From the NCBI RefSeq assembly GCF_035084215.1, contig NC_090336.1:29016001-29080000 (forward strand): a stretch of 64,000 nt of DNA, written 5' to 3'. Made by a program: the position numbers and the translations under genes. The notes beneath the pieces are model-generated. The model did no database searches and was not told the origin of the DNA. It saw only the letters and a program-made list of their open reading frames with translations. Below are positions 267 through 60,329 of the stretch, piece after piece; position 1 is the first letter of the stretch; each line of letters starts with the position of its first letter. The stretch comes from Heptranchias perlo. Lineage: Eukaryota.

Positions 267-578
267 CTTTGAGGGGCAGTTGAATACATCTTTTGAATAC
301 ATCACTTTTGGAATTCTCTTCATACTGAAAGATTAATTCTCTTTCAAAGTCTTCAGCAGTCACTAAAAACATCAGACAACTGTCTATACTGTAAGTGTTT
401 TCAGGGGTAAGCACAGGACCTGAATTTGTCACTCCATCTTTAACGCGATCAGATCCTTTGTACCACTCAACAGTAACATTTTTATGGAGAAGATCGTACA
501 CTGAATGGGACACAGATAAGGGCTCGCCATACACAGGGTTCTTTGGCTCCATTTTGAATTCTGAAAATTTAGGCGAGC
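267..578 (-). CDS. Gene B exon 9: post-TM C1-like domain 5 (both canonical Cys lost); the gene continues left of the window
   Basis: GSPKFS...[20 protein letters not shown]...GVTNSGP. 312 nt, donor AAAG|GTGAG, no stop codon. Confidence 0.87.
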
Positions 579-3500
579 CTATAACATAGAAAATAATATA
601 TTTAATGGATACAAAAAGGCAAGATTAAGCCACATCCTATCTGCCAAGAATTTTTTTAATTCATTCTCTGGATATGGGCGTCGCTGACATGGCCTGCATG
701 TATTGCATATCTCTAGTCACCCTTGAGATGGTGGTGAACCGCTACTGTCCACAGCATGAAGGTACTCCCAACAAAGCTGTTAGGTAGGGAATTCCAGGAT
801 TTTGGCCCAGCTACAATGAAGGAATGGCAATACATGTCCAAGTGACTTGGAGGTGATAGTATTCCCACGCACCTGCTGCCTATGTCCTTCTAGGTGGCGG
901 AGGTCACGTGCTGCCGAACTTGCTGCAGTGCTTCCTGTACATAGTACACAATGCAGCCACAGTACGCCGGTGGTGGAGGGTGTGACTGTTTATGCTGGAT
1001 AGGGTGCCGCCAGCAGACTGCTTTGTCCTGGTTAGTGTTGAGATTCTTGAGTGTACTTGCAACTGTACCCATCCAGGTGAGTGGAGAGTATTCAATCACA
1101 CTCCTGACTTGTAGGTGGTGGAGAGGCTTTGGGGAGTCAGGTGAGCCGCTCACCATAGAATACCCAGCTTCTGACCAGCTCCAGTAGCCATGACACTTGA
1201 GAGTTTCTGGTCAATGGTGACCCCCAGGATATTGATGGTGGGGGATTTAGCGATGGTGATGTCATTGAATGTCAAGATGAGGTGGTTAGATTTCCCCTTC
1301 ATATCCAAAACGTAAATATATCAATGTTTAGTAAGCAGACTTTTCATTGTTGTAGTACTCATTTTCCTCAGCCTGCATAGGCCAAGAGGAAATAGAAAGT
1401 GGCATTTCCACTGTGGTGTAGAGCATTTTGTAAATTTAAAAAATGGCACCCATACAAAAAGTCTTGCCCTGCTGATGTTTGAAATGGTCAGCTCCTAAAA
1501 GTTTCTACTGCACCTCAAATTTAAAGAAAATCTGTATAAATTACAATTTTGTTTAAATTGGCAGATTATTGTATGATTAGACTATTTCTCAACAACACTA
1601 ATTAGGCAGTAAAGATCATAGTGGTAAATTGGGCTATTCTTATTCAGAACAAAGAAAAGTGAAAGTAATATAATTGCACAGTTAAGAAGTTTTAGCATTT
1701 CAAATGTACAGGGCAAGTACAGGGCATTTCACAGGGCAAGTACAGGTCATGCAATTAATTCTGGTTAGTCTCTTGATCTTTGAACAGTTGCCAACAGAAC
1801 TCATTTCATCTTAAGCATACCGTAGCTTGACAAACAGAAAATTTTAAACTCACCTTTAAGAAATAGCTGAAAACATTGCTTAAAAGGTTTGGTTGAAGAT
1901 TTTGAATGACAAACTTCAATTCTGTATTCAGCTTGATGATCATCAGTACTTGGAGTCAAGGTTACTTGGGTGACTTTGTTGTACAGACCATTTTCACAGG
2001 ATGAATCTTCCATAATGTTTCCATGTTTTCCAATCTGGTTCATTTTCACCTCATTTCTGAACCATTCAACTTGAATATCCTCTGGATAAAAGTTACTTAT
2101 AGAACAGGTTAAAGTCAATTCCTTCCCTAGTTCAGGGATGGGAGGATTGCAGATAATTTCAGATACCTTAGGGAAAGATACTGAAATAAAGAGAAACATT
2201 AAGAAAAGCTGAAATACATCTTTCCAAATTTTGTTTCAGATATTGGTACCAAAAGTTCTGTGTAACAAATTATTTTGAATGTATTCAATGTTTGTAAGTT
2301 AATTAGAAAGCACCAAATAAGTGGACTGTTAACATTCATCCCTACATAAGTATACTCACAGAAATGCAAACAAGTCTTAGTATTTTAAACCAATGTTATT
2401 CTCTAAGCTAGAGCTTGTCATTTAAAAAAAATACTCCACAGAAAATAGTTACTTCAGTTTTTCATCACAACTAACTTTTAAGCACCAGAATAACTCAGTA
2501 TGTAAAGGCACAGTGTGGTAAACCATACAGATCAGGAATCCAAGATTCAATTCCATGTATATGCTCAACTACCGCAGGATTGTCACCAGGATTTTGATTA
2601 CATCACCTGGCATTGCACTTGCAAGCTTTTCAAAAATGGGTTAATGTGTGTTTTACCTAATTTTGCTCCCTAATTTCAAACTATGGGAACATACACAATG
2701 CAATAATTTTACTGCTGATGCATTTAGATCTGTCATTCTGTGGCAAAAAAAATTGCATTAATGTAATATAAAATTTACAAACCAAGAACTCCATGCCTGA
2801 TCAGGCATTATTTCCTGAACATCACTGTTCACATTTTTGGGAAATAAGACTTTAATGTCCCATGTGATTTCACTGATACCAGCTCCACTCTGAATATGCC
2901 TAGCAACAATGTAACCCAATTTGTTCCAAACAATTTTGTGTCCCCCCCACCATTATTTTAAGTGTAGCTCTTCAATCTTTAAATTTTCTAAACACTCATG
3001 TGGTCTGGGGAATATAATATCCCATCAATGCTCCACTAACATTAAAATTTAACTGCATATTGATGACCATGGTCAGAATATAACTTGGATCTAGACAAGG
3101 ATCCCCTCTGAACAACTACTTTTAGTGAGAAGTTCGCTCACTGACCTATTTAGGGTACTATTAGGTTTGCCTAACTGTCTGAGGAACTGTAGCATTAGAA
3201 CACATTTAAACTCCAGTAATACTGTTTTGCACACCAGAACCAGCTGACTGCTAATCTTAGCCATCCTGGTGAAAGGTGGCAAAGGATAACAAAATTTTGA
3301 GTGAATACATTTTTATGAAATTAGAACACAATTTAGTTTAGTTATAAACAAAAAGATCTACATTTTTCATATTGCAGAAATGTTTTTAAACTGAGAATAA
3401 ACATACCTAAGTTTTCAGGAATGTATTCTGCAATCCTTGGATACATAAGACTCTCATGTGCAACCTGGCATTTATATTTACTCTGTAGGTCAGATAGTGT

Positions 3501-6500
3501 TGGAATAATTGTACATGAACTGGTAAGTTCATACAACTCATTCTCAGAAATGTGAATTATTTCATCTCTTTCCATAATAGTGTCATTATTTTTGAGCCAT
3601 TGGACAGTAATATTTTTAGGATAAAATGAATGCACTTTGCAGGACAGAGTCAACTCTTCTCCAAGTACCGGGTTCACTGGTTCACATGAGATAGCATTAA
3701 GTGAAGGAAAAGCTGTAAAATATAAAACAGTAGAACATTACTACATACTTACATATATATAGTATATTAGTGATAAACTTTTTCATAACAGTATCTTTTT
3801 TGGTGGTGGATGAAAGAATAATAATGACCTGGACACCCCTGTTCTTTAAAGTAGTTCAATGGGATCTTAAACATCCACCTGAACAAGAAAGGGCCTCAGT
3901 TTAACATCTCATCCAAAGGATGACACCTCCAGCAGTGCAGTACTTATTCTGTACTATACTGAAAGGTCAGCTGGAATGTGAGTTGAATCCACAACATTCA
4001 ACTCCAACTGAGTCAAGGAAAGGAACAGGAAATGGTAAATGTGTGTAAAATATGAAAGGGTGTTCATTAGCAGGGGTAAAAAAAACAATGAGTGTGATGA
4101 CTGATTACATCCTAAAAGTATCTAGCCAATTAGTCAATTTACAACCTGGGGTACAGCTGGGCAGCACTGAATTATAAGTCAGAAAAGCGAGAAAAGAAAA
4201 GGAGGGAAAAAAGGAAAGAAGCCAATTATTGTAATGTAGGAAATGTGGCAGCAAGGCCTCACACACAGCAAGGCGATAATAACCAGATAATGTTTGTAGT
4301 GATGGTGGTAAAATAAATTATAACAATAAGAAAAAGAAGAAAATGCATATTGGAAATAAAAGCAGAAAATGCTAGCAATAACAGGTCTACCAGCATCTGT
4401 AAATATAATTTAGCCAATCTAAAGGGCTGGGGTCAGGTGGCACTGTGACTTAGCACATTATTCTTTCACCTCTGGTACCTGGTCTGAATTCATTCCAAAA
4501 AGATGGGATGAACATTTCCACTTTTTAAATGACGGCTAAGAATCCTACATGATGGAAGCTGGAGCCATCTCAACACAATTTTTAATGGTCTGGAGTCTAT
4601 GGGATAAAACTGCCTGCAAATTGGTAATTTCACTGAGGCCACAGAGATGACTAACTTAGGAAATGATCAAATTTGCAACAGTTGATCACATTTTCACAAC
4701 TAAACACCTGGAAGTGCTTAATGCTGACAACAGATGCTCAGCATGGAAGGTTGCTCTATTCCCAAGCACTGAAATTCTTCATATCAATGCGAACAGAGGA
4801 AAAAAAAACACCAACAAATTTTAAAAGGGACTGAGAAATGTCAAGAACTTTGCATTCAGGTTACCTTTTACTTCCAGTTTGATCTGTTGCTCTGCTGGAT
4901 TTCTCAAACCAATGTGCTGAACTTCACAGAAATATTCACTGTTATCATCTTCTCGGATCGTTGCATTAAAGAGCAACATGCTGCAGACGCTGTGAGAGTG
5001 GTCAGGAGAACTAAACTCACTCATACTGTGGGAATATTTTTCTGGATAGGAATTCTCTTCAGCTACATTGTTGTGTTTCAACACAGGATGTTTAATTCCA
5101 TTCATTATTTTATACCAGGTGACCGTTAAAGGACGTGGCTTGAAAACATTTATCGGACAAGTCAGCATCACTGTATTGTTATGATGCACAACTGGGGGTC
5201 TAATTATGTTAGCCAATTTAGGAGCAACTAAAGGGGGAAAAAAAAAAACACAAAACATTCAGTTTTAATTACACACAACTTCTGAAGATAAATGTTATTG
5301 ATTTATCTTTTATCATACATTACTCACAAAATGAAAGGTCATTATCTATACATGTACTAAACAAACAATGTTGTGTCTCCATTAATCTTAAGCCATTTCA
5401 GTTCTCTTTGACAACCATGCAAGTGGTCTGTTCCCTATCCTACTTCCTCCACCCCAACCCATGTTGCAGCTTTAGTTTCTCTTTCATCTGTAGCAATACC
5501 CAGACATGCCAGTAGTGCAGCTCCAAATTCAGGACAGGTATAACAAAGATAATCTCACCCAAGACAGAGTTAGGAACATAGCAACAGAAGTAGGGCATTC
5601 AGCCCCTCGAGCCTGTTCCACCATTCAATTAGATCATGGCTTAACTTCATCTACCGTCCTCGGTTCAGTAACCCTTAATACCCTTGCCTAACAAAAATCT
5701 ATCAATCTCAGTTTTGAAATTTTCAATTGACCTAGCCTCAATTGCTTTTTGGGGGGGTGGGGGGAGGGGGGTGGGAAAGAGTTCCAGAGAGAGTTACATC
5801 CCAGCCCCTATCCCTCCAAACTCAGGCTCTCTCTTTCATAAATAGGGACAAATATCCATTTTTACAGCTATTAGTGGGTCAGAGCCCCACCTCCGGCTCC
5901 AGGTCAGTGAGAGGAATAGGAGATTGTGAGAGTGAAGTAGTGGAGGGAGAGAGGGGAGACACAGATGCAAGGGGACACTTATAATAGCTCATTTGCATTA
6001 TTTGTATAAGGAGGCACCGTGAGCAGATGATCAGATCAGAAAAATAACCTAATTTTCCTCTTTACAAATACCCCAACAATCCATTATTGAATTGTTTTTT
6101 TCCTAACCCATCAATGAAAAACGTTCTTTTTATTTACGGCAAAAGTCAAAGCTGAGAGATTTCAGAATGGAAGTTTTGCCCAATTCAAGAACTGAAGCCA
6201 CAGAACCAGGCCTGGTAGGCTACGATGAAGCAAAATAGCCTTTATCCGATCCGAAATGACACCAATGTCCTTGTGGAGAAGGCGAATAGGTCAGTGGGGA
6301 GAACATAATATGTTTGGGGGGGGGGGGGAACTAGGCTTGATATTAGGGAGGGACAGCAGGATTAATGAAACTGTAGGAGTAGAAGCAGAAGGCTTAGTTG
6401 ATATAGCAAGAAAATATTACAAGAAAAAGGGAAAGAGAGGGGCTTTGGGATAATGCAAGGTAAAAGCACCATTGTACAAGAGACAAAAGATACCAAAAAC

Positions 6501-9500
6501 TAATTGAGAAAACTAGGAAAAAGAATAAAGCTCCATTATCTAAAAAAATTGGAATCAGGATTGATATGTAGGTAAATGGACATTGCATTCAAAACAAATT
6601 GAAGTGCTAGATGCACTAGTAGCTATAAAGGACATGATATAGTAGCTATAATTGAGACATAACTTAGGTTTGGACAAAATTGATAACTTAATAGTCCTGG
6701 TTTAATATTTTCAGGAGAGATGGAGAGGGGAAAAGGGGGCAGTATTAATAAAGTATTCTATCCCAGTGCTAAAATGTAAGAATGTTCTAAAGGGTTAGGC
6801 TAAGACAGAATTTATATGGATGAAGTTAAGGAAAGAATGGGAAATGGTACAATCTTGCTGTAGTTGTAGGCCACCAAATAGTGGAGAGAAGATACAGGAG
6901 GAAATATGTAGAGAGGTGAAAGAACAACTGGACAATATTATTGGGATGATTTTAAGTTAGGAAACAAGACCACAGATCAGCTGTGAAGATTGTTCAAATG
7001 TGAGATGAATGGAGTACAAAATGTATTTGTATCAGGCAAAAAAGGATGCATCAAAGAATAGAGATTGTAAAAAGGAGGCATGTGATAAAACTAAGGCTAA
7101 GAAAATCATGAGAAATATAGAAAGTATAGTGAGGTGAAAAGGATAGAAGGGCCAAAAGAGAATATGAAAAATGGTTACAATATAGACATCCTTACTATTT
7201 CTTTTTAATATGGATATTGGAAGTAAAATAATTCAAGAGTAGGACCTCTCTGGGATGAAGAAAGAAATCTAATTATGAAAGACGATATTAAATAGATCAT
7301 TTGTCAATTTATTTTTTAAATGATGGAGGAAGTAAGAATTCAGTTATATTCGAGAAGCACGTGAAACAATTGTTGGGGATTAATTGTAGAAAAGAAATTT
7401 GTGCTGAAAAGGTTAGCAAAACTCAAGACCTGCATCCTGAACTCTGATCACAATTTTTCAATCTTTCTTAAACATGCAAATTGTGCCAAGGTACCTGACA
7501 GCAGCTGTTCGAGAAGGATAAAGCAGGTAACTATAGACTAATCAGTAGTGGACAAACTTTTAGAATCCATAATTTGTGATTAAATTAACCAGCATTTAGA
7601 GATGCAGAGGATAATCAAGGACAACCAGCGGGATTTGTTAAAGGCAAGTCTTGTTTGACAATTTAATAGTGTTTTTTTTTAAAAATGGTGACGGATTGTA
7701 TAAAGGGAATTCATTAGATGTACTGTATATGGATTTTTCAGAAAGAGTTTGATAAGGTTTCTAACAAGACGCTGGTTACAGAACTTCAGGTATATAGAAG
7801 AGGAAATGTAGCAGAAGGCTGGGTGACTAACAGCAATCAAGGGTCAGGGTTAATGGGTGTTGCTCAGATTGGAGAAGGGTTGTAAGTGATATATCCCAGG
7901 GGTCAGTGCTGCTTCCATTTTTGTTCTCACGATTATGAGTGTGTGAATGTGAGCGGAACTGTAAGCAGGAGCCACTTTTTTGTTGATCCATGAGCAACAC
8001 CATAGAATATCAAAGTTATTCTAAACATGACCAACCCTTGAATTAATACCATGTTTTGTAAATCAGCCAAGAAAACTGCCATGAGGTATCACTGAGCTAT
8101 GAGAATGGGTCTCTTGACACAATAAGCTTCTGTTTATTCTTGAAAGAGTAAATGAACATATCTGAAGAAAAAAATCCATCTATGCCACAAATAGGTGAAT
8201 TAAACATCATGCTTCCCCCCACCCATGAAAATAACACAATAGAAAAATTACTCAAACATCATACATATTATTAAAAAACCTGTACATTTACTGCCCTTCT
8301 GTGCTAGTATTTCATGCTTTCTAACTGCCAGCTAGATGGAGCTTGGGGGCAGATACTTTGTAAAGAATCCCTTCTTCCATGATATTACAAACAGGAAATA
8401 CTCTATCCTCACTTGTGTCATTACAAGAAAGACAATTCATCATGTTACTGATGGAAGAAATTCTACAGAAATACGATTCTGCAAGCCAAAAAACACTAGT
8501 GAAATTTGAAGGAACCTTGCTTTATACCATTTATGCAGTGACTTTGCATAAAAGACACTCTTTTAAGCTACCTTCAGTTCTCTGCTGGATTGCTGTAATT
8601 TCTTCCCACTCCCTCTGCATTCTTTCACATCCTACAGTTCTGGTTCCAGATATGTTCTAGCCTATTGGTCCTTTGTTGAACAGTTCAGTACCACTGTGCC
8701 CTCTCCATTTTTCCCTTCAACATTTCTTCATCACACAGCTTTTATCCTAAATTAGTAACCATATCATTTAAAAGCACTCACTCAGAATTGTAGATAGGGG
8801 ATTTTACTACAATGGATTTAATTTTAACAAGTCATCCATGAGAGGGAGGCAAAATATGTCAAGAGGCCCATTCTCAAATAGCTCAATGATACTTTAAGGC
8901 AACTTTCAGCCACAGAAGCATCAATTTGCGAATGTCTTTTGGATGGAGCAGGTGGTATATTATACTGTTCAAAGTGGATATCCATGAATGCCATGAGAAA
9001 ACCTGAGGGCCACAATACCATAAAGTACTCATTTGAAAACTTATGATTGTTAGTTCTAGTGGACATGACTTGGGGTTGCAACATTTAATGAGTGCAATCA
9101 AGAAGTGGCAGTGAAGATTATTGATGTGATCAATCTGAACACACAGCGTCCACACATTCTACCTAACAGAACGGCGACTTCTGATAGACTTATAAAAAGC
9201 TTACTTCCATCAACTTGTAAAGAGATGCTTCTGAAGGTGTCCTCACTGCAGGCTGGATGCATCACTTCACATGTGATTATTGCTTGATTATCCTCATTGA
9301 TGTCAGGATAAACCGCAAGAATGCTAGAAACGCTGAATGTTCCATCATCATTTTTCTGGAAACTGCCCAACTTGACTTTCCATTGACACTCAGCATGAAT
9401 CCTTTTTGCAGTCTCATCTTTTTTCCTGTCAGTGACGAAAGGTATATGGATCATGTAGTCTGTATGCCATTCACCAATCAATTTCTTTTCAGAGTCCTTC

Positions 9501-12500
9501 ACCCTCTTCAAATACCAGGTGATAGTAATGACATCAGGTCGGAATCCAGACACTTGACACGTAAACTCTGCAAGTTCTTGGTGTACAATTCGGGCAGGTA
9601 TTTGAATGTCTGATACTTTTGGTGCAACTGGGAATAAAAGAAAATTTAAAGAAATTTCAAGTTGGATTGTTCCAAATTATCTTTGACGCTTCCTGAAAAT
9701 TCCAATCATTTGGTATATCTAGTCTTCACTGATTGTGAAATACATATTAAAAAAACCTGTACATTTACACAAAGAATGCTCCCAAAACGCTCGTCATCGG
9801 AACAACTCAGCAGGTACAAAGACCCTACTTGAGGATCTTCATGTTAGCAGAATGATTTACATTTTGGAAATAAGCATTAAATAATTGAATATAAGCTTAT
9901 CATTTCCCTCTTTGAAAAGGTGGAGTATTTTGAATTAACAATTACACCCTTTGGAGTTTCTTTCCCTTGTAAACGTTCACCCAGTCCACTAAGTTCCAGA
10001 ATATACTAAGTAATTGTCATCAGCAACACTGGTACCAGATCAAAGATTCAAATACAGTAAGACAGTACAAGGGTTAGAGTAACAGTAACACACTGTAGCT
10101 GCAAACAGCAAATTAATAAGGAGTTTATGAAGGTACAAAGATTCTAAGCAGAAAGTTTATGAAAATTATCCATCAAAATACAAAACACAAATAAAATACA
10201 CTTCACGATTAGACATTTCATACTTAGTTTGCATCTCAATTAAGCACTCGTTAGCAGACTAATCATTTATGTTTAAAAACACTACAGATTGGTGCTGTTA
10301 CAACTTGATGCAAAAAAAATCAAGCAATTGTAGCAGATTTGGTGCAGTATTAGTTAACCAGAATATACAAGAATTTGCTGGAACAGCAGAAACTATGCTG
10401 CAGTAAGAGTTATTATTGCCCCCCTCCCCACCCCCATAACCTAAATTTCCTTTGTCATTTCACTCCAAGTTTATCCCCTAATCTGTCCGAAGTAGCACAC
10501 GTAGAATTGTAGGTTTACCTTTAAAGTAGAACCGCATGTAGAAGAAAATCCCCACTGCTATTAATGCAACAGAAATAATAATGCTTGCAAAGATGCTTCC
10601 AACTATTGATCCTGTGGACAGACGAATTTCTGCTTCTGTAAAAAAAAGTTACATATTTCTCATACTGGATTTTAAAAAAATGGTTCCACAACTCACCAGT
10701 GTAAAACCGTATAATAAGAGTAAAGTATACCAGAGAAATACTTAGCACAGCTCTGGACCAGCCAAATCAGGGAAAGTGCTCATAAATAACAGGCATTTGT
10801 TTTCACACATCTGAGTGTCCCATATTGTCTGCAACCCAGTTGTGTTATTTGGAAAACTGGCTATTGCACCTATAATGACTGAAAATCCAGTGTCTACTGG
10901 GACTTACATGTCATTGAAAATTTGTGTCAAAATGAAAAATTTGTCTATAGCAGCATTGTGTGTGTCTTTGGCAAGCAGCAGAGGGTAATCGCTTGCAACT
11001 ACAATATGGATGCAATTGCCAAACAAGTAGAAAGCACTGTTAGCCATGTGCTCAGGGTTTTTTTTAAATTTCGTTCCTGGGATGTGGGCGTCGCTGGCAA
11101 GGCCAGCATTTATTGCAAATCCCTAATTGCCCTCGAGAAGGTGGTGGCGAGCCGCCATCTTGAACCGCTGCAGTCCGTGTGGTGAAGTTCTCCCACAGTG
11201 CTGTTAGGTAGGGAGTTCCAGGATTTTGACCCAGCGACGATGAAGGAACAGCGATATATTTCCGAGTCGGGATGGTGTGAGACTTGGAGGGGAACGTGCA
11301 GGTGATGTTGTTCCCGTGTGCCTGCTGCCTTTGTCCTTCTAGGTGGTAGAGGTCGTGGGTTTGGGAGGTGCTGTCAAAGCCTTGGCGAGTTGCTGCAGTG
11401 CATCCTGTGGATGGTACACACCACAGCCACAGTGCGCCGGTGAAGGGAGTGAATGTTTAGGGTGGTGGATGGGATGCCAATCAAGCGGGATGTTTTGTCC
11501 TGGATGGTGTCGAGCTTCTTGGGTGTTGTTGGAGCTGCATTCATCCAGGCAAGTGGAGAGTATTCCATCACACTCCTGACTAGTGCCTTGCAGATGGCAC
11601 GAATGTTACTTGCCAGTTATCAGCCCAAGCCTGGATGTTGTCCAGGTCTTGATGCACGCGGGCACGGACTACTTCATTATCTGAGGGGTTGCAAATGGAA
11701 CTGAATACTGTGCGATCATCAGCGAACATCCCCATTTCTGACCTTATGATGGAGGGAAGGTCATTGATGAAGCAGCTGAAGGTGGTTGGGCCTAGGACAC
11801 TGCCCTGAGGAACTCCTGCAGCAACGTCCTGGGGCTGAGATGATTGACCTCCAACAACCATTACCATCTTCCTTTGCGCTAGGTATGACTCCAGCCACTG
11901 GAGAGTTTTCCCCCTGATTCCCATTGACTTCAATTTTACTAGGGCTCCTTGGTGCCACACTCGGTCAAATGCTGCCTTGATGTCAAGGGCAGTCACTCTC
12001 ACCTCACCTCTGGAATTCAGCTCGTTTGGACCAAGGCTGTAATGAGGTCTGGAGCAGAGTGGTCCTGGCGGAACCCAAACTGAGCATCGGTGAGCAGGTT
12101 ATTGGTGAGTAAGTGCCGCTTGATAGCACTGTCGACGACACCTTCCATCACTTTGCTGATGATTGAGAGTAAACTGATGGGGCAGTAATTGGCCGGATTG
12201 GATTTGCCCTGCTTTATGTGGACAGGACATACCTGGACAATTTTCCACACTGTTGGGTAGAGGCCAGTGTTGTAGCTGTACTGGAACAGTTTGGCTGGAG
12301 GTGCGGCTAGTTCTGGAGCACAAGTCTTCAGCACTACAGCCGAGATGTTGTCGGGGCCCCTTAACCTTTGCTATATCCAGTGCACTCAGCCGTTTCTTGA
12401 CATCACGTGGAGTGAATCGAATTGGCTGAAGACTGGCTTTTCCGATGGTGGGGATATCGGGAGGAGGCCGAGATGGATCATCCACTCGGCACTTCTGGCT

Positions 12501-25090: not shown

Positions 25091-25356
25091 GGCCCCGGCC
25101 CCGGCCCCGAGCTCGCTCCGTCTTTCCTCCCTCCCTCCCTCTCTCTCTCTCTCTCTGTGACCGGGGACGGACGGACGGACGATCCGCCTCCTCCCGCCCC
25201 GAGTTTCACTTTCGTCGCCGCCAGCGAGAGGGAGGGAGCCGGGATTGCGCGCGCATCCACCGGTTACCCGCCACTACCGCGGGAGGGCGCTGCCAACAAG
25301 CGATAAATTGACACTTCCTTGAGGAGAGGCATCAAAGGTGGGGGATTTCATCAACA

Positions 25357-37136: not shown

Positions 37137-37139
37137 CAC

Positions 37140-43218: not shown

Positions 43219-43230
43219 TGTCCCCTTGAT

Positions 43231-46412: not shown

Positions 46413-46726
46413 TTAAAATGCCAAATTAATCTTTCGTTCCATAACTTCTTTAGTTTCTGGGTGAATAACCTCACATGTGATTACTGTGTCCTGGTCAGAT
46501 GGTTCTGGAGCAAATTCAATTTTTGTTGCTGAAGAGAAGAGACCATTTGCAGCAATTTCAGGCTTTGTATTAGCCACTGGTCCTGTGAAGGGCTGCTTTC
46601 CTTTGAACCACTTAACTTCAATTTCTTGAGGTGCATAATCAGTCAGTGAAACAGTGAAAGTAGCCACTTTGTTTTTCTCTGGACGTGTCGGGTTGCATTT
46701 GATTTCAGACACAGTGGGAGGACAGC
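46413..46726 (-). CDS. Gene A last coding exon: C1-type domain 6 ending in TAA
   Basis: GCPPTVS...FTVSLTDYAPQEIEVKWF...NGLFS...ITCEVIH...KINLAF*. Acceptor tctgtcttaag. Confidence 0.87.
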
Positions 46727-49700: not shown

Positions 49701-52700
49701 GGATGGAGTCGGTGGCTAGAGAGCAGAGATCCCGGCGGAGACCAAAGACAATGGCTTCGGTCTTCCCAACATTTAGTTGGAGGAGTTTTTGCTCATCCAG
49801 ATGTCGGATAAGCAATGTGACAAATGAGAGACAGTTGTGAGGTAGAGATGGGTGTCATCGGTGCACATGTGGAATCTGCTGTGTTTTCAGATGATGTCAC
49901 CGAGGGCATCATATAGATGATAAAAAGGAGGGGGCCGAGGATAGATCCCTGGGGGACTCCAGGGTAACAGAGCAGGAGGGGGAAGAGAAGCAGGTAATTC
50001 TATGGCTACGACTGGATAGATAAGAATGGAACCAGGCGAGCACTGTCCCACCCAACTGGATGACAGAGGAGAGATGTTGGAGGAGGATGGTGTGGTCAAC
50101 CGTGTCAAAGGCTGCACACAGGTCGAGAAGGATGAGGAGGGATAGTTTACCATCAGCACAGTCATATAGAATATCATTTGTGAATTTGATAAGAGCTGTT
50201 TCAGTACTGTCGCAGGGGTGGAAATCTGATTGGAGGGATTTAAACATGGAGTTGTGGGACTGATGGGCACAGATTTGGGACGCGACAACATGTTCAAGGA
50301 CTTGAGAGGAAAGGGAGGTTGGAGATGGGGCAGTAGTATGCAAGGACAGAGGGCTCAAAGGTGTTTTTTTTGAGATGTGTGATGACGGCAGATTTGAAGG
50401 GGAGGGGGACAGTACCTGAGGAGAGGGAACCATTAACAATATCAGCTAACATGGGGGCCAGGAAGGGAAGTTGGGTGGTCAGCTGTTTAGTGGGAATACG
50501 ATCAAGGGAGCAGGAGGTGGGTCTCATGGTCAAGATAAGCTTGGAGAGGGCATGAGGGGAGGTAGGAGAGAAACTAGAGAAAGGTGCAAGTTCAGGGCTA
50601 GGGCCGGAGGGAACTGTAGGGGAAGTTTGGCTTGATGGGCTAGGGGAAGGGAGGGAAGCAGCAGAGGCAACTAAATGGATGGTCTCTATCTTAGTGACAA
50701 AGAAGTCCATGAGCTTCTTGCACTTTTCGTTGGAGTTGAGGGTGGAGGGGCAGGGGAGAGGGGTTTGTTAGTTAATTGCAAACGTTCTGAAATTGAACTC
50801 TTCAAATATTACAAACAATTAATGCTTTCAGACAATAAAAAAACATTTATTTCACATTTATTTTCTATTGCTATCCATGACTGATTTAACAATATAAACA
50901 TTTTGATGCACAAAAAGCAAAAGGTCCTGAGGATGAATTAAATTGTGCATTTGCTGCAATTTCAGAATGGCATACCCATTACATGCTGATCTGTGATCTA
51001 GTAAGAGTAGTACTGTAAATTAGGAGTAGCGTGTGGAAGGTTTCATGCATCCATTATGCAGATATTCAAAGAGCTCAATTTAAAGGCAAAGCTCTTGCAT
51101 TCCCCATCGCTTATAATACTTCCAGCCAAGGTCATTTAGCCCCCTAATTCCTAGTCCATGGAAGTGACATTTGACAATTTCATCTACTCATCATGTACTG
51201 ATGAAGATCAGTTTCTTTCTTTGATTTGATTCCAGACCCTGTTTTGTCCTTTTTCCCCCACTTTCAGAATTAGCCAATCTCTGAATTCCTCTCCCCCCTT
51301 ACCCTTCCCCCCAAATGCCTAGAATTCTATGCAAGGTTAGTCTGCCAGGTAAAACTGTGATGCTATTTGTTCAACTTATGCCAAATTATGGGCAGTTTTG
51401 TGCTGCGGTTGAGACTCCCAATAAGACTTGTCATTCTTGGCTAACTTCAAACCTAGGTCACAGAGGTGAACAGACGATGCTAGCCAAACACTTTGCTCGG
51501 TTCTACTAGATTTTTTAGTCCAAGTAAACAATAGTTACTTAATCAGTCAATAATCTACAAATTGTGTGTTGGATCTTAGCTGACCAGGTACTACTTTGAT
51601 ACAAGATGATCTGAAGTACCTTAACAGTCCTATGTGTGCCAAAAGCAAGATCAACTCATAGATCTGAGTTCAATATTACCACGGTATAATATCCATGTGT
51701 ATTTGGGTTACTTGCTTCTAAACATTCACATTCATTCTCTTTTGCTGTCCACAATTATTTGGATTGTCTAACAACTGTTTCGATGCAAAAACAATTCAAG
51801 CTTATGGCTGAGTATAACTATCAGAATTTCAAAATAGCTCTAATCCAACAAAGACCCCATATCATGCTCATCTGTGATCTAGTTTTAAAAGAAAAAGGAC
51901 TGAAAAGCAAGAAATATTAGCACAAAGAGTTTTTCACAAGCAAGAGCGCATCAATCAGCACTTTCTGGCAAAATTAATTTTAGTACAAAATATTTGTGGT
52001 AAATTTACATTTAAATTAGTTATTTAAGAATGTGAAAATTTGACAAAATGTTCCCGTTTAAAGGAATGCACAGCTTACTAGAAGTTTAATATTAATGTAG
52101 TTCAGTATAGAAACAAATAGGCATTTAATTCGTACCTCCAAGGTGTAAGATGAAACTGGACCTTGAAGGTCTGTGTGAAGTTGGGAAATGAAGAACCTCA
52201 ACTCTGAATTCCATTTGATGATATTCTGGCCTAATGAACAATTTCCATTGACTTCCACAGTAGAAAAGTCCAGTTTTTTCATCTTTCTGGGGTTCGGAAG
52301 AAGTGATTCCTGTATCTTCAGTGCGCACATCATTTTTGAACCACATGAACATAGTTTCCTTTGGAAAGAAGCCATATGCATGACATATGATTGTTGCTTC
52401 TTTTCCTGCCTCTGGGAATTGCGGTTCACTTCTTATGTATTCTACCAATGGAGAAGATACTGGATCAACACAAAAAAAAGTTAGATGTAGTATCTTGCAA
52501 GCTACTTCAATAACTTACAGAAAATAAAATTTATGAAGAAAACTAGTAAAAATATTTGTTAGAAATATCTAGCTATAGGATGAGGTCATGCTAAACTCAA
52601 ATTTTAGTTATTCGGATCCTACTGTACAATTAATATTTAGTGAATACATTGTGTGCCATAAAAATATAAACATTGAATTCAAAAATTTAAAGAACTATAG

Positions 52701-55700
52701 AATGTGTTACGTGTTTGCAATGAAAATACATGCATAAAAATGCATTTTAAATTGATGTTCTACAAATATGTATGCCAACACAACTGTGAAGCATTGAAAA
52801 GAATGGAATGATGGATGTGATTTTATCAGTTTTTGGCATGATTGTGCTTCCATAACCTCAGTATGAGCATTATGTTGGGCAAACAAATATTCTGTTTGCA
52901 TCGTGATAAATTATACTATAATGCAGATGCACTGTGCTGGTAGGAATAGAAATAAATGTACTAAGCAGTTGATATGATTTTCACCCTTTTACTAAAAATA
53001 CATATAGTGGGCCAGAATTTGCTGGAGCAGGGCATCTCACGGCGTGCCCTGTTAGTTAAACATTTTCCTGCACCCTTCAGCTCAAAAATGTTTTGCCCTG
53101 CAAGTTGCTGGAAGTGCGAGCTGATAACGGCACAACGAGGGCAACAAGGCATCTGGGACCTCGGTAAATGACGGGACCAACAGTGTATCTCCTTAAATAG
53201 TAAGATTAAAGGATTGAGAAATAAACAGAAGCAGGCCTGAGAAGGAGGGTGAATTAGAGTGGGTGAATTCAATGTCAAATCAAGTACAGAAAGAGAAACA
53301 AAAACAGGATTGAGAGAGAAAATAGAATCGAAGGAAAAGAAAAAAAATTACATTTTAAATTTGATATTTTTAAAATCTCCAACAACAATTCAATACCTGA
53401 AGGAATGAGACTTCACACTTTTAATTGTTCACTTGTCTGGGCTGGAGAGGTTGATCGCCAATCATTAACAACAACCACCTCGTTAAAAGGATATTTACCC
53501 TATTAATTACTGGACTTAACTTTTTGTGGCGAGTTTAATGGGCAATTAATGCAGCAACTTCATGAAACTCACGGGGAGGTTAAGTGCGAGATGCCATTTT
53601 CACAAAGCTAATGGTGGAGTGACGCAAATCAGCCAGCAACTTGTGGCGATTCGCAATTCACGGGATATCTCTTCCTCGCCAAAAGTTGCTGGCCAATTTG
53701 CACATTAATAACGCACGCTGTTATTTGTTCAGTAAATTTCAGCCCTTTATATAGTTTAAAAAGATGTTCTTATGAAAAAAGAAAAATCTGATTGATGGCA
53801 CATCTCTCTCCAGTTCAAAGGCACTCTCCCCTCTCCCCACACACATGCAGTCTAAAGAGGGGCTCGTCTTACCTTCCCCCTCAGTTCCAGAGGAACTTTG
53901 GACCAGCCCCAGTGCACAAATACACTCCTCCCCCCCACTTAATTTCAGAGGTACTCCTTCACTCCCCCTACTTCACAGAAGTATTGTTCTCTTCTGCCAC
54001 CCTGTCCAAAATACCCCTTACCACTGGTCCTGGCTTTATCTGCTATTCTGAGGTTTTATGTTCACTGGTTCCAGGTCTCACCTGAAGGCGCTTTGCGAAC
54101 ACACTAACAGCCACACTCTGCAGGCAGGAATTCCTCATACGACAAAAACTACTGCATGCTAAACTGTCTGTACTCACCAAGCATTGTTCTGTGAATTATA
54201 AATGCGATTTCATTTCGAGGATTTCATATCACATCGTTCACCTGACGAAGGGGGAAGCCTCCGAAAGCTTGTGAATTTAAAATAAAATTGCTGGACTATA
54301 ACTTGGTGTTGTAAAATTGTTTACAATTGCTAAGCAGAAAGCAGAGAATCCACTCCTGCAGCTAAGCATCTTCAGACAGGAATGATACCAGCAGGGAGAG
54401 TGCATCAAGGAGCAAACTAGCAGGGAAGAAGCAGCAGGGAGGAAACCAATAGGGAAGAGTATCAGGGAGCAGACTAGTGATGAGCCCCTCATTTGCCTTT
54501 GTTGAATCCTTTTAGGAATTGAATGCAGTTGGAACAAAACTGCATTTAATATCAATGCACTCACAAGATTTAAAGCTACATTTACCAGAGTCTGATAAAT
54601 TGTGAGATGATAAAACTTTTATTTCTACAAAGGCAAACATGGACATATCTGAAAATACAAAATTAGTTTTACTTTTTAACGATAGCCTTCAAGGTGAATG
54701 AGGTCAGTGCTGAAGGGTGGAATAGTTTTTTCCAACTTTGTCTTCAGTGTCAAGTATAGTACTGCCAGCTACTGAGCAAGCTCCCTTCAGTCTACCCAAC
54801 ACAGTACCTCGAGCCTCAACCTCAAAAAGTTGAACCAGTATGAATTTTTCTACTTTACACAATAGCCATTCTGGCATTTCTGGCTAGATTTTAAGTTTTA
54901 TCATGAATAATTTCAAGTTAAGAGTAATTTTGTGTTCATGTTAACTGGGGACTGGACTGAAACTGCCCAATCTCATTTCACACCAGACCACAGCCAACAG
55001 GGAAAGGAGATCTTTATGCCATCAGTCTGGCTGGATTTGAACCTCAAACTCAGTGATTAAAAGGCAGTGCATAAACCCAGAATGTCATCCATTCTTACAA
55101 CCCAGTTTTTCAAAAGTTAACAAAACCAACTACTTATGCACAGCTGTGTTCTACAATGAACATTAGAATCTTTTAAAATAAAAAATAATATGTTAATAAA
55201 TGTAAAATATCTTACTTACCCACTGGAATGAGTGCACGGTCAGTTTTTCTGGACTCAGTGATACTTTCGTGCTGGAATTCACAAGTTAATATCTTCCCAA
55301 AATCTTCCCTAACAGGAATAAATTTCAAACGACTTGTAAAGTAAAAAAGGTCATCCTTTCCAATGACTACTTCAGCATCAACATTCGTTTCCTCCAATAT
55401 GATGTTATTCTTTTTCCAAATAACTTCAATATCTTTTGGAAAGAAGGAATATATTCTACACGACGCAAATGCATGTTCATCTGCAATTGGGGCTTCTGGT
55501 GTCAGTTTTATATCATCACATTTTGGGATAGCTGAGCAAAAAAGAAAAAAAACACAAATTGTAGAATTTTGAAAACAACAAACATTGGTGATACAAACTG
55601 CTGGGATTTTTTTATTACTGATTTTAGATTGAATCATTAAAAAGAAACAGTTAACAGCATAAACTGAAACTGACATTCAGCTCAACATGTACAACGTTAC

Positions 55701-58700
55701 AAACTACGGTCAAATGTTTGATTTTAATTATACATCTGTATTGCCACCCCTCCACAAAATCCAACGACCAAAAGTAAAAATGAAAAGCTACTCTGTTCTA
55801 TCCCTGGATAGGCCCATTACCTGCCCCTTCCTGATCACTTCTGAATGTGCCCACTCTAGAAGTGATAATCTAAGTTCACCCACAGAAACTGTATTCTGCA
55901 CTGAGATCCACAGAATCTAACAGTAAGTGTAATGTGCCAACGCTCTATTAAGCAAACAGTTTGTTTCTGGAATAGTCTGCATCATAATGAAACCACATAT
56001 GGTTAAGTTTCAATATATTTTAGAGCAGAGAACAAAAAACTTCCAGTTATCCAAGCTTTGATACATCAAGAGTTCTGTTCTTGGTACTGAGATAAAGCAT
56101 TTTCTACGCCACTGTGCCTGCCAATTTCAAACTAACAAACCCAGTGGAACGGATAGAAGTAACCCTGACTATTCTGAATCCTGGTCTCATGCAATTAGGT
56201 GCACTGACAGAGTCAGAAGAAAGCAGCAGATCCCTCTGAAAAGTTATGTAGAGGACTACTGGGCCTGCTTTATGGACAGTCTAGTTTTATATCCAGTCTT
56301 GGATGAGCCACAATTTCCTCCAGTTAAGTGTTGGGAAGACCAAAGCCATTGTCTTCAGTCCCTGCCACAAACTTCATACACTTGTCATTGACTCCCTAGC
56401 AATTGTTTCAGACTGAACCAGACTGTTCACAACTTCAGCATCCTATTTGACACTAAGATGAGCTTCTGATCCCATATATTTTCCTTCAAACAGACTGCTT
56501 CCTTCCAGTTCTGTATCATCCGACTCCTCCCCACCTCAGCCCATCTGCTGCTGAAACCCTCATCTGTGCCTGTGTTACTTCCAGACTCGACTATTGCAAT
56601 GATTTATTGGCCAGCCTCCCATTCTCCACACTTGGTAAACTTCAGCTCATCCAAAACTCTACTGCCTGTGCCCTGTCCTACAACAAGCCCATCTCACCCA
56701 TCACTAAGCTACATCGGCTCCCAGTCCCCCAAAGCTTTCAATTTAAAATTTTCATATTTAAATCCCTTCTTGGCCTTTACCCTCCCTCCATCTGTAACTT
56801 CCTCCCACCCTACAACTCCCCAACCTGAATTCTCTGTTCTTCTAACTCTGACCTCTTGTCCATTCCCTCCCGAAACCCCGCCACCTCCCTGCCACCTCCT
56901 CCTCCTTAAAACCAAGCTTTTGGTCAATCCTCCTAGTATCTGCTTCTTTGGCCCAGAGTCCATATTATTCTGATTACGCCTCTGTGAATCACCTTAAGAT
57001 GTTTTTCTACATTAAAGAGTCCGTACAAGTGCAAGCTATTCTTTTTCTGCAACAACCAGGGGAGCGGGAGACCAGGAGAGTGGGAACAGGTCAAGAGCAA
57101 GTGAGTGCAGCTGAGGGGAGCCACAAAAGTATTCTGAGATATCAAAGTGAAATTCAGCATAATTTGATGTTAGAACAGAGGCTAGGCCAAAACTTTTGAC
57201 GGAGATGTTCAATAAACTGAAATTCAATATAAAAAGGAATCCATTAAAATTAATATAACCAAAAACTCTCAGCTACAATTTTCCCTTCTTCACCTGATTA
57301 TTTTCACTGTAAGAAGATAACTCATGAGAAGGACTTCACAAATATAGCAAATGCCTTTCTCACCTCCAAGTTGAATGTTCCACTATTCCACATTGTTCTC
57401 CTAACACCTTACCCAAGATCCTATAATTCTTATCACATCCTAAGTGACAACACGTCCTGGGATTGCAACACAAGCAATGTTAACTGATTGTTCTTACTGC
57501 TTACCAACCGTCCAAATTAATTTTCTTTTAACCTCTTTACAAATGAACTATAATTATTCATTCTGTATTTGACGAGAGAACTTAAATATTGCAGCTAAAA
57601 TTGTAGAAAAACATTTTAAATAAAATGATCAGAGAAATGCTGACAGTACCTTTTATATTTAAAACAATATCTTTTGTAATTTTTGACCTTGTGGCTGGAT
57701 GCACTACTTCACAAATATACTTAGTGCCATGGTCTTCACTAATGGTTGGTATAAAAACAAGAACACTGGTGACGCTGTATGTGTTGTCTTCATATTTCAG
57801 CTCAGTTATACTGTGGGAATATTTGGGTTGCTCTGTTTCTGTCCCAGCAATGAACTCTGGTTTTCCTGGCTCAAATTTCACAATTTCTTCCTCCAGCTTG
57901 TTCTTCTGTTTTCTGTACCAAGTGATAGCCAGCGGTCTCGGTTTAAATCCATTAATTGGACAGGTCACAGCAAGCACTTCTTCATGAATAATACGAGGAG
58001 GTATTACAATGTCCGTCATCTTTGGTTCAACTTTTTTTTAAAAAACGGGAAAATACATAATATTTAATGTTTTAAAAAATTCTCAGACTACTTTAAAACA
58101 AAAGCATCTCAGAGTTTACATTATCTACTGCTGCATCAAGTATAAAGGGCAATTCAACAATCCTGGCAAAAAAAAGCTGCTACCCCTGCTGCATAAGGTC
58201 CGATCTGTGTGCTGGCAGAATGGTTAGCTGGCCTTGCCAGATGTTACAAGACAGCCAGGAATCTAATTTAAAAACGTGGCCTGCACTACTTCAGGCTTAT
58301 ACAGGAAATGTAACTACAAGAGACCCTGCAAAATATCAAGTCTTTTAGGCTCAAATTTAAAAGGAAATAGCCACTTCAAAGAAATGGTCAAATGAGAAAA
58401 AAAAATTCTTGGAGTTGTCTAAAGGCTCAAAAATGTTTTTAAAAAAAGTTTTCAGCCTTTACAAATGTTGTGTGGTGGGGTGGGGGGGGGGGGGGGGGGG
58501 AAGGAGAAGAAATGACAAGCAAGTATGAATCTGCAGGACACAGGAACAAATGTGGGAAAAGAGGGTACACTTAATCTGGCAATGTAAGACTTCCTGACAG
58601 TACCATATACCTGGTAAACAGCCCAAGATTCTATGCCAAAAAGTGTTGCCTGTTCATCCATGCCAAGCCCTCTCTCAACCTTACATTTCTTTCACTGTAT

Positions 58701-60329
58701 CTCATGCAAATCTACACCTGTGCAAAGCATGCAGTCAAGCTGCAGTACACAACTGAAAGCCTTGCCAGACACTTCTAAGGGCGTCTTTCAATAAACCATT
58801 GCAACACAAACATGGCCACTTACTGTCACTTAGGATGGTCTTCAGTTTGGGCCCATGGCAGCCATCAGCTGTGTCATGCTATCCAGTATGAAAGGAGATG
58901 AAAGTGCTGACCAATACAATTGTTTGATATGTGTAGACAGCACATTAGGGGATGTTGCAGTGCTAGGCAGGAATGAGCTGAAGGTATAACAGTTGATGCA
59001 GTGGTGACCTTGCCTACCACTAGCACTGCCATCTATATGTTGCAAGAAATCTGCAAATGTCTTTTTGGCAGATGGCAAGTTCTACAGCTGATTCCCTGCT
59101 AACCTATATTAAGCAGTTGTTCCTGGTCATTTGCAAGATGGTGTGCCAAGGTCCACGGATATGATCTGGTCCCTATTGATCTCCCCGTCATGAGGCATTT
59201 TAGAAACAAAATTCCCTTGAGTAAATAAAAATTGGCTCTTAAAAATTGCATAATTAAAAATTTCAATGATATGGAAAAATACCAAAAAGGTCTTGTAAAC
59301 GTTGCAACCAAAAATGTAAAGCCTATGGCACTTTAAAAGCTCCTTCACGTGGAACTTCCCTTGCTTTCATTCTCATCAATACACAAAGGAAAGAGCAAAC
59401 CTGGCACAAAAGTTACAGAATTGTGTTCGATGTTTATTTAAATATTCATAATCTTGGGCTTAAATGACACGAAGACACAAAATGTGCATAAGTACTTCAG
59501 CGAACTAAATGCACAAGATTACTGAATTATAGACTAGTAACAATATAGAACCTGCTCTCCGAATTTCGTGATCCTACTGCACCTGTCGCACAACTGCTCT
59601 CAATGCATGGTTAAAATTAAATACTAGGAGGACAGTGGAATAAGAGGAGGCAGCTCAGAATTTCCAAAATGAGTTGGCTAAAATATGTAAGTGGCCAGAG
59701 CAATTTGCGGCTTAATGTGTCAGTGACAAGTTTTCCAGTTTGTGGACTGGTCGATCATTTTACCCATAATTTCCTGGAAACTATTCTATAACAAGGTAGT
59801 TTCATCCATGTCAAAATAAATATACAGATACATCTCTTTAGAAAAACAGAAATGTTTCAGTTAAGTTCAATTGGTATCAATTGTAATTTACACTTACTTC
59901 CTTCAATTTTCAGTACGAGGCTCCTGACAATATGCTTTCTAAGATTGCTATGACGGACTTCAACCTGGAGGATAGCTTCATCATCTTTATAAATATCAGG
60001 CCATAGCATAACTTTGCACTTCACACTGGAGCTACCATCATTGTTGTGTTCGACAACTGGCAGCTCAAATTTGAAGGATCCATCTTGCTCATCAAATTGA
60101 AGTCCATTTTTTGAAATAAGTGTCTGCTGGACATCTGAAGGTTCCTGGAAGTTCCTAGGTGCAGGAGTCCACTGGTAAATCTCATTTCGTTTCTTTTCCC
60201 CTTTTCTTTGTAGTAACCAGCGAACAGAAATGTTCTCAGGCCTATACCCCGAAATCTGACAATTCAGAAGAGCTTCTTGCAAATGTACAATCCGTACAGG
60301 TTTGTTGATAGCAGAAACTTTTGGAGGAA
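46413..60329 (-). CDS. Gene A (5'-incomplete): paralogous poly-C1 IgSF gene. Exons 59898-60329, 57650-58030, 55220-55531, 52136-52459, 48198-48509, 46413-46726 (stop)
   Basis: Six phase-1 Ig exons in one frame ending KINLAF*. The first five match gene B exons 5-9 in order. The upstream exons (presumed SP-V-C1-TM) are not visible in the window. Confidence 0.85.
47247..47526 (+). mobile_element. 280-bp retroposon with a (TAG)n tail and a 14-bp TSD, inside a CR1 remnant
   Basis: TSD agtaggttgtgttt at 47233-47246 and 47527-47540. Confidence 0.75.
48198..48509 (-). CDS. Gene A C1-type exon 5 (paralogue of 267-578)
   Basis: GVPIVS...EP.IPLYG...KCLVINFSP...W...GVTNTGP...FAIEVIH. 312 nt, the same length as its paralogue. 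Confidence 0.88.
48950..50765 (-). mobile_element. L2-clade LINE fragment
   Basis: STETAL, LLDLCAAFDTVDH, LQLNVGKTE, RLDYSNALL and LHWL motifs. Confidence 0.87.
52136..52459 (-). CDS. Gene A C1-type exon 4 (paralogue of 1854-2180)
   Basis: VSSP...PEAGKE...ICHAYGFFP...WFKND...EFRVEVLH. 324 nt. Confidence 0.88.
53009..53745. mobile_element. Related TIR element in the opposite orientation
   Basis: Ends GGGCCAGAATTTGCTG / CAGTAAATTTCAGCCC. Internal gaaggaatgagac is the reverse complement of gtctcattccttc in the 32513-33230 copy. Confidence 0.55.
54237..54275 (+). ncRNA. Minimal type I hammerhead ribozyme motif in a Penelope-like fragment (about 54080-54328)
   Basis: TTCAC-CTGACGA-A-GGGGG-AAG-CCTCC-GAAA-GC-T-T-GTGAA. 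Stem I is TTCAC/GTGAA, the CUGANGA and GAAA core is present, stem II forms, and stem III is a palindromic AAGCTT. Confidence 0.6.
55220..55531 (-). CDS. Gene A C1-type exon 3 (paralogue of 3407-3712)
   Basis: AIPK...SCRIYSFFPKDIEVIW...LTCEFQHES. 312 nt. Confidence 0.88.
56290..57036 (+). mobile_element. Decayed L2 3' fragment
   Basis: KLQLIQN and FKIFIFKSL motifs; similar to the other L2 copies in the window. Confidence 0.75.
57650..58030 (-). CDS. Gene A C1-type exon 2 (paralogue of 4865-5227)
   Basis: IEPKM...TCPINGFKPRPLAITWY...KYSHS...YICEVVH. 381 nt. Confidence 0.88.
59898..60329 (-). CDS. Gene A C1-type exon 1 (paralogue of 9205-9627)
   Basis: VPPKVS...RIVH...NCQISGYRP...W...NNDGSSSV...LQVEVRH. 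Same GGAA|GTAAG donor as its paralogue, 432 nt. Confidence 0.88.

Follow-up and report, generated by a model that had tools for sequence, protein, structure and literature searches.

Results and Discussion

Two genes, A and B, of Heptranchias perlo at the locus of B7-H6, a ligand for natural killer cells, probably encode V-C1-TM proteins continued by six C1-set domains in the cytosol, some of which replaced their canonical cysteines in ancient times and which together would have a scaffold role. The architecture is of more interest than the cysteine loss, since such loss is to be expected of domains in the cytosol. The window analysed in this study comprises 64,000 nucleotides (NC_090336.1, positions 29,016,001-29,080,000 of the forward strand). 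Feature coordinates are relative to the window, and all exons located in it are on the minus strand.

Exon organization of the two genes

Gene B starts with a signal-peptide-like leader exon (25015..25090) that resembles the leaders of its orthologues in sequence. It is followed by a V-set exon (18962..19315) and an extracellular C1 exon (15804..16130), both assigned from residues and contig splicing, and by a TM exon of 117 nt and phase 1-1 (10519..10635), the translation of which ends in YMRFYFK and whose joints to C1 and to the first post-TM domain were found in 4/4 runs. Three post-TM C1 domains, d1 (9205..9627), d2 (4865..5227) and d3 (3407..3712), are supported by Pfam, contigs and residues, and d4 (1854..2180) and d5 (267..578) by residues; d6 lies just beyond the window edge, after d5, with both Cys present. 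The whole series V-C1-TM-d1-d2-d3-d4-d5 is on a single contig in 3/4 runs, and the contig of the fourth run stops within d5. All four runs come from one sample, and their RNA status is a guess of the tool, none being recorded as RNA, yet the contigs are spliced. A single hydrophobic segment lies between C1 and d1 and is followed by basic residues. Another TM candidate, at 15228-14983, proved false, as the contigs splice past that segment.

Gene A has its V, C1 and TM exons upstream of the window (29.080-29.088 Mb, G000:C12). Inside the window are its d1 (59898..60329), assigned from residues, and d2 (57650..58030), d3 (55220..55531), d4 (52136..52459), d5 (48198..48509) and d6 (46413..46726), assigned from contigs and residues. 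The exon joints from d1 to d6 are also found in contigs. A stop codon immediately 3' of d6 shows that there is no tail beyond this domain.

Identity and genomic context

Among PDB sequences the best phmmer match of the gene A protein (P0012) is B7-H6 (E 7e-28); the next B7-type match is CD276 (3e-16). After B7-H6, the matches next in rank are IgE, UrIg2 and SIRP. The ectodomain fold agrees with that of B7-H6 (TMt 0.89-0.92; TM-score 0.92 across the B7-H6 chain). A leader and a single TM segment give a type I layout at the sequence level, with which the splicing agrees. A Kir6.2 (KCNJ11) ORF was found 30 kb downstream in convergent orientation, and NUCB exons, not told apart between NUCB1 and NUCB2, upstream of the cluster; the human gene order is NUCB2 - NCR3LG1 - KCNJ11 according to a table in PMC3608171. 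From this position and the B7-H6-like ectodomain it follows that the two genes are B7-H6/NCR3LG1 co-orthologues. They bear a different tail and are not human-type B7-H6: the post-TM part consists of C1-set domains as far as the stop, and no Gag-homologous tail with ITIM/SH2/SH3 motifs was found there.

The shark locus contains at least six V-C1 units, and some paralogous exons of the cluster look fragmentary. The V-C1-TM-C1-array layout is also present in chimaera, bichir, coelacanth, lungfish, amphibians and alligator, and a 1085-aa family member from Bombina is named NCR3LG1 by NCBI. With the array present in lineages from sharks to alligator, it is the human Gag-like tail that would be derived. 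A search of titles, starts of abstracts and passages, which did not cover the main papers on B7H6 evolution, returned no description of cytoplasmic C1 domains in B7-H6. The 2012 or 2015 Flajnik/Ohta papers may describe additional Ig domains for B7H6 of frog or shark, and the architecture may thus already be published.

Cysteine states within the window

All seven motifs quoted in an earlier, sequence-only reading of the window were located in minus-strand open frames. That reading had proposed that canonical cysteines are eroding only in the post-TM domains. Its residue calls are borne out: at the B/F positions of gene B, the extracellular V and C1 are both C/C, as are d1, d2 and d3, d4 is C/I (Ile, codon at position 1920) and d5 is H/F (His at 507, Phe at 330). 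The corresponding residues of gene A are C/V in d1 (Val at 59964), C/C in d2 and d3, C/V in d4 (Val at 52202), C/I in d5 (Ile at 48261) and V/C in d6 (Val at 46652). Thus 6/11 post-TM domains are without at least one canonical Cys, replacements are mostly I/V (5/7), the core Trp is intact in 11/11 and the reading frames are open. The only two Cys of gene A d1 are on strands B and E in facing register, and strand E of gene A d5 carries two Cys that are inferred to point outward. The contrast within the window, 2/2 intact pre-TM against 5/11 post-TM, is not significant (Fisher p=0.46); it becomes clear only once homologues are added.

Cysteine retention across the family

Pre-TM and post-TM C domains were compared in 118 homologues. 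Both Cys are present in 126/142 pre-TM C domains and in 313/607 post-TM ones, and retention is higher before the TM in 101/117 proteins. The V domains have both Cys in 102/103 cases, as do 34/34 complete domains of three all-extracellular multi-C1 controls. The raw Fisher p of 9e-18 for the family overstates the contrast because the domains are related to one another, and tree-based counts were used instead: these give 52-60 losses post-TM vs 4-7 pre-TM, with a per-site rate ratio of 2.3-5.4 and a one-sided p of 0.0004-0.005. The strong post-TM bias stands family-wide, but the word "only" does not, as 16/142 pre-TM C domains are without a Cys. The pre-TM losses are mostly from one clade of first-C domains, whose named members are from frog, with S/A/G on the B strand. 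Small S/A/G account for 15/19 pre-TM replacements, and large hydrophobic residues for 391/438 post-TM ones. The core Trp is kept at 93% on both sides. The specificity of the post-TM loss for Cys is partial, because Pro30 and Phe/Tyr62 likewise disappear there at 2.6-5 times the pre-TM rate (2-5 times with Phe/Tyr28 included).

"Eroding" is a misnomer. These losses date far back and are fixed by domain position, with states that hold from sharks to amphibians, and the exons are still conserved: d3 is intact in 27/27, d2 in 25/26 and d4 in 0/27, with the lone B-strand Cys of d4 present in 26/27. The F-strand position of gene B d4 is I/V in 10/10 chondrichthyan orthologues. Similarly, the losses in A-d1 and A-d6, previously taken as copy-specific, are common to a third paralogue upstream and to chimaera, coelacanth, lungfish and newt proteins. 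Only one canonical Cys remains in 150/607 post-TM domains. Half of the post-TM domains have both Cys, d2 and d3 nearly always, which speaks against the main reading in that a real disulfide would explain it too.

Fold and selection

Pfam C1-set is the best match in 11/11 post-TM exons, with 23.5-55.6 bits against a cut-off of 21. The canonical B-F pair that marks the C1-set is absent in 6/11, which are therefore C1-like folds lacking this hallmark. The AlphaFold model of gene A from a 63-sequence alignment has a mean pLDDT of 89.9, with the Ig strand pattern at high confidence in all 8 Ig domains, in support of the proposed conservation of the fold; from the single sequence the pLDDT is only 33.

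The exons are not evolving neutrally. Identity across 10 chondrichthyans is 60-80% for gene B d4 and 52-74% for V, and the orthologue identity of d4 and d5 is similar to that of V. Paralogue dN/dS is 0.2-0.67 both pre- and post-TM and below 1 in every unsaturated pair, these values approaching saturation (reached in A-B d1 and d2) and coming from alignments with some intron-derived flank. A CH3-like dimer role was considered, and no hydrophobic ABED face of the CH3/CH1 type was seen: the hydrophobic fraction at the inferred outward ABED positions is 0.14-0.32, mostly S/T, with a provisional assignment of faces that is not taken from coordinates.

Signs of membrane topology

In 96/118 proteins the net charge is higher after the TM than before it, and in 8 it is lower. 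Non-canonical Cys number 1.91 per domain post-TM vs 0.68 pre-TM. This charge bias and the excess of Cys agree with a cytosolic location of the array. Sequons are 1.73x expected pre-TM vs 1.17x post-TM, a modest signal because the controls are likewise somewhat higher pre-TM (1.29-1.37 vs 1.20-1.25). Two ectodomain sequons are conserved in 9/10 gene-B orthologues, as is one post-TM sequon.

Alternative explanations

An inverted topology, with the post-TM domains lumenal or extracellular in the main form and the Cys losses as extracellular exceptions, would suit the Cys pair seen in many post-TM domains and the extracellular loss known from frog first-C domains. We regard it as very improbable in view of the N-terminal leader, the single TM, the positive-inside bias, the intact V domains, the two conserved ectodomain sequons and the excess of free Cys post-TM; human B7-H6 is also a type I protein, as described in passages of PMC2715080. 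Hardly more probable is a general relaxation, under which the post-TM exons drift or degenerate and Cys loss is just one part. The faster loss of Pro30, Phe/Tyr28 and Phe/Tyr62, contig differences in A d1/d2 that are non-synonymous in 5/5, and the fragmentary-looking exons of some cluster paralogues fit with it; it is opposed by open frames, spliced contigs, the identity of gene B d4 relative to V, the dN/dS values and the position-specific Cys states that are stable from sharks to amphibians. A dual topology is rather unlikely but has more to commend it. Here, in-frame skipping of the TM exon would yield a secreted V-C1-(C1)6 whose real d2/d3 disulfides are kept by selection, and the membrane form would have the same domains in the cytosol. 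The phase 1-1 and 117-nt length of the TM exon maintain the frame when it is skipped, d2 and d3 are nearly always intact, and for four species the databases list isoform pairs whose sole difference is the TM segment (caecilian P0165/P0164, horn shark P0187/P0189, Bombina P0191/P0034, Rana P0192/P0073); in such TM-less isoforms the post-TM domains would lie outside the cell. Soluble B7-H6 is known in humans according to a passage of PMC6514059. However, the isoforms in these four species are annotation models, no TM-skipping joint is among the 15 of 45 gene-B joints listed (contigs drop rare forms), and many Cys of a secreted form would be unpaired, given the post-TM domains with a single canonical one.

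The sequence-only reading also treated the domains without the pair as possibly disulfide-free, which nearby compensating Cys would contradict. Where a domain lost its F Cys, a Cys newly acquired on strand E opposite the B Cys might form a cross-strand disulfide or redox switch. This may hold in A-d1, whose two Cys are C311 (B) and C392 (E) of P0012; the idea is inapplicable to d4, d5 and d6. In 62 long d1-type domains the E-Cys and F-Cys almost exclude each other: 33 have the E-Cys only, 18 the F-Cys only, 1 both and 10 neither, with B+E in 24, and coupling analysis favours a B-E register that places these positions opposite (sum 89 best, mean Z 1.52). Of 34 domains of a second lineage with Cys at position 21, 31 also have Cys at 68, and 21-68 is the next facing pair. 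Nevertheless, the E-Cys occurs without the B-Cys in 9/33 d1-type domains, Cys at position 68 stands alone 41 times, the direct 23-66 coupling ranks 1346/3081, and each pattern amounts to about one lineage event. We therefore consider such compensation decidedly unlikely. A broader scenario is also unlikely, in which the ancestral jawed-vertebrate B7-H6 had a cytosolic C1 chain, TM skipping flipped the chain to a secreted state, disulfide-free and disulfide-keeping domains were combined, A-type d1 had a B-E redox switch, and the human Gag-like tail was a later replacement.

Proposed mechanism and comparison with known systems

We favour leader-V-C1-TM proteins whose six C1-set Ig domains likely lie in the cytosol. 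There the B-F disulfide is likely not formed, and this, we propose, is why several domains replaced a canonical Cys. Replacement by a larger hydrophobic residue occurred early in jawed-vertebrate history, with the state held since, and the Cys still present in d2 and d3, like the single B-strand one of d4, may be buried core-packing thiols, such as many titin domains have. The ectodomain is predicted to bind an NKp30-type receptor. The C1 array, as the entire cytosolic part, would most likely act as a scaffold, monomeric and rod-like, on which partners in the cytosol dock and which positions the ligand or clusters it, taking the place that the Gag-like tail has in human B7-H6; this docking role is the weakest step and is put forward tentatively.

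C1-set domains are normally regarded as modules of antibodies, TCR and MHC that are extracellular and pinned by a disulfide. Ig folds without the B-F bond are known from CD2 D1, CD58 D1 and CEACAM N, and CD4 D2 has a cross-strand bond; all these are extracellular V- or C2-set domains, unlike the likely cytosolic C1-set domains described here. A family whose natural C1 domains number in the hundreds and likely fold in the cytosol would provide a test set for the Ig fold without its disulfide, as Cys gave way to hydrophobic residues many times independently, and could also supply scaffolds for intracellular antibody fragments.

Human B7-H6, the NKp30 ligand, resembles genes A and B in its V+C ectodomain, type I layout and NUCB2-X-KCNJ11 neighbourhood. 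It differs in its tail, which is Gag-homologous with ITIM/SH2/SH3 motifs in passages of PMC2715080, whereas the shark tail is six C1-set domains. Tandem C1-set domains that follow a V domain are also found in UrIg2, Ig heavy chains, SIRP and TAPBPR, but there they precede the TM (UrIg2: a passage of PMC12227049), whereas in the shark genes they come after it. The Ig domains of the titin I-band form a cytosolic tandem array with B/F Cys in 43%/42% of domains, and these Cys can form non-canonical redox-dependent bonds, as passages of PMC5766482 describe. Those titin domains are I-set, have a B-F-G triad and belong to a soluble protein of the sarcomere, whereas the shark domains are C1-set, membrane-tethered and have their extra Cys on strand E.

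Gene structure and transcripts

The window is AT-rich vertebrate DNA with numerous reverse-transcriptase-like repeat frames, and all seven motifs of the sequence-only reading lie inside minus-strand Ig exons of two paralogues. Gene B runs from its leader exon (25090-25015, minus strand) through V, C1 and TM (10635-10519, minus strand) to d1-d5, with d6 immediately past the window edge. Gene A has d1-d6 in the window and its V, C1 and TM exons 0.3-8 kb past the window end; the complete protein is found in the database as P0012 (978 aa, 100% identity over the query exon, source label Heptranchias perlo). V-C1-TM-d1 to d5 of gene B are joined on a single contig in three of four runs, all from one sample, and the d1-d6 joints of gene A were likewise found in contigs of these runs. 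All 11 post-TM exons exceed the Pfam C1-set cut-off. Since d1 begins a few residues past the TM and d6 terminates at the stop codon, the cytosolic part would consist of Ig domains throughout.

Relative to the assembly, gene A contigs carry five non-synonymous differences in d1/d2 (window 57721, 57770, 57895, 59945 and 60293) and one synonymous difference in d6 (window 46689), and gene A may be polymorphic; no differences are listed in gene B exons. In both d1 domains (59898-60329; 9205-9627), an insertion of ~35-40 residues separates the C-strand region from strand D; it is modelled with low confidence at P0012 residues 349-368 and is a candidate binding loop adjoining the membrane. The GC-rich stretch at 24400-26400 (64% GC), with tandem repeats around the gene B leader exon, is likely the promoter CpG island, and a long purine-rich low-complexity repeat lies past it. 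Long reverse-transcriptase-like frames in introns and intergenic DNA (61204-62964, minus; 41440-42675, plus; 27198-29765, plus) are presumably LINE-type repeats.

Distribution of cysteine losses

The sequence-only reading held that the canonical B- and F-strand cysteines are eroding only in post-TM domains. Its tally is exact: six of the 11 post-TM domains lack at least one canonical Cys, five of seven replacements are Ile or Val, and the core Trp is kept. Within the window alone, the pre- versus post-TM contrast is not significant (p=0.46). A family test was performed on 118 of 162 proteins, those with a single TM and C domains on both sides; the 44 excluded had no TM at threshold (35), several TMs (3) or no post-TM C domain (6), and 20 incomplete domains were also left out. 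Both cysteines are retained in 126/142 pre-TM C domains versus 313/607 post-TM, with retention higher before the TM in 101 of 117 proteins. The pair is intact in 102/103 V domains, and Trp retention is 93% on either side. Parsimony was run on a domain tree inferred after masking the Cys columns and counted 52-60 post-TM losses versus 4-7 pre-TM. Scaled to branch length at risk, the per-site rate ratio is 2.3-5.4 (p 0.0004-0.005), varying with the cost set for gains. Pro30 and Phe/Tyr62, tested in this way too, gave 2.6-5.0, which counts against a purely Cys-specific effect. The post-TM bias is strong, but "only" goes too far: 16 pre-TM domains also lack a Cys, mostly from a single clade of first-C domains with Ser, Ala or Gly replacements, frog in all members named. 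Large hydrophobic residues account for 391/438 post-TM replacements.

An extra Cys of the extracellular C1 (15804-16130) is conserved at model position 50 in 25/28 proteins, and this domain of gene B has five Cys in total. In d5 (48198-48509; 267-578), strand E carries a Cys at model position 67 in both genes and in 12/27 homologues, and we infer that it faces outward.

Age and conservation of the losses

Among 27 proteins of the six-domain type, spanning chondrichthyans to amphibians, intact pairs were counted in 9/27 d1, 25/26 d2, 27/27 d3, 0/27 d4, 5/27 d5 and 10/24 d6 domains, and in 28/28 pre-TM C1 domains of this set. Such position-specific losses do not fit the description "eroding". 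In 26/27 d4 domains the B-strand Cys remains alone; conservation of a canonical Cys thus does not require its partner here. The gene A d1 and d6 losses, taken earlier as copy-specific, are common to the next paralogue and distant species and are thus lineage-old. The Cys-less d4 is about as conserved among orthologues as V. Rough paralogue dN/dS values from unsaturated comparisons are 0.2-0.67 for pre- and post-TM exons alike, which speaks against neutrally evolving exons. AlphaFold (63-sequence alignment, mean pLDDT 89.9) predicts that each of the eight gene A Ig domains folds, in line with the claim that the fold is kept. The feature is real, and its interpretation as a disulfide dispensable in the cytosol is partly right.

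Disulfide alternatives, topology and role

The only Cys in gene A d1 are one on strand B and one on strand E. Among 62 long d1-type domains, the presence of an E-Cys nearly excludes that of an F-Cys, and coupling analysis favours a register that sets the B and E positions face to face. The B- and E-strand Cys may therefore compensate by forming a cross-strand bond, though the E-Cys frequently persists after B-Cys loss and direct coupling between the pair is absent. The retained d2 and d3 pairs could be explained by a secreted form exposing the post-TM domains to the ER. The TM exon is skippable in frame, and isoform pairs differing by the TM segment alone are annotated in caecilian, horn shark, Bombina and Rana; among the contig joints listed for Heptranchias perlo, no TM-skipping joint was found.

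The sequence-derived evidence for a cytosolic array is indirect but consistent, comprising the leader, the single TM, net charge (higher post-TM in 96/118 proteins), non-canonical Cys (1.91 per domain post-TM versus 0.68 pre-TM) and sequons (1.73x expected pre-TM and 1.17x post-TM; control motifs 1.29-1.37 versus 1.20-1.25). No CH3-like hydrophobic face is evident on the post-TM domains, which would favour a monomeric rod that may scaffold partners.

Related exons elsewhere in the cluster

On the same contig (G000:C12), a paralogue at 29,362,000-29,404,000 (loci L033-L037; database relative P0058) has five tandem d4-like domains behind V-C1-TM, with an F-strand Cys in 0/5. In the d1-like exons at 29,169,000-29,210,000 (loci L013, L014, L017), both Cys and also the C-strand Trp are missing, with a W/T/I pattern; the horn shark protein P0064 has seven near-identical copies of this type of domain past its TM. 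Two d3-like exons, 29,411,148-29,411,588 (minus) and 29,459,526-29,460,032 (plus), are 99% identical, with no family exons found nearby, and the match to one copy is interrupted by a stop; a gene fragment may have undergone inverted duplication here.

Identity and comparison with known systems

The closest solved relative of the ectodomain is B7-H6 (NCR3LG1), in sequence as well as in fold, with a TM-score of 0.92 across the B7-H6 chain. Orthologue-like matches to gene B occur in 10 species (sharks, rays and one chimaera). Named members among the best 150 profile matches come from chimaera, skate, bichir, coelacanth, lungfish, caecilian, newt, frogs and alligator, together with a turtle model without TM; the Bombina member is annotated NCR3LG1 by NCBI. 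Full-text searches of the accessible literature listed no paper that describes C1 domains on the cytoplasmic side of B7-H6. The main comparative papers reportedly may note extra Ig domains, so the array may already be described. B7-H6 is unmentioned in the accessible portion of PMC6795676.

A precedent for intracellular Ig arrays with partial retention is titin, which keeps the B/F Cys in ~40% of its domains according to the available text of PMC5766482. At the shark locus, at least six V-C1 units lie between upstream nucleobindin exons and the Kir6.2 gene KCNJ11, 30 kb downstream, the same neighbourhood order as human NUCB2, NCR3LG1, KCNJ11 in the sections of PMC3608171 at hand. Human B7-H6 differs in its tail, which is described as Gag-homologous in an excerpt of PMC2715080, where the shark genes have post-TM C1-set domains.
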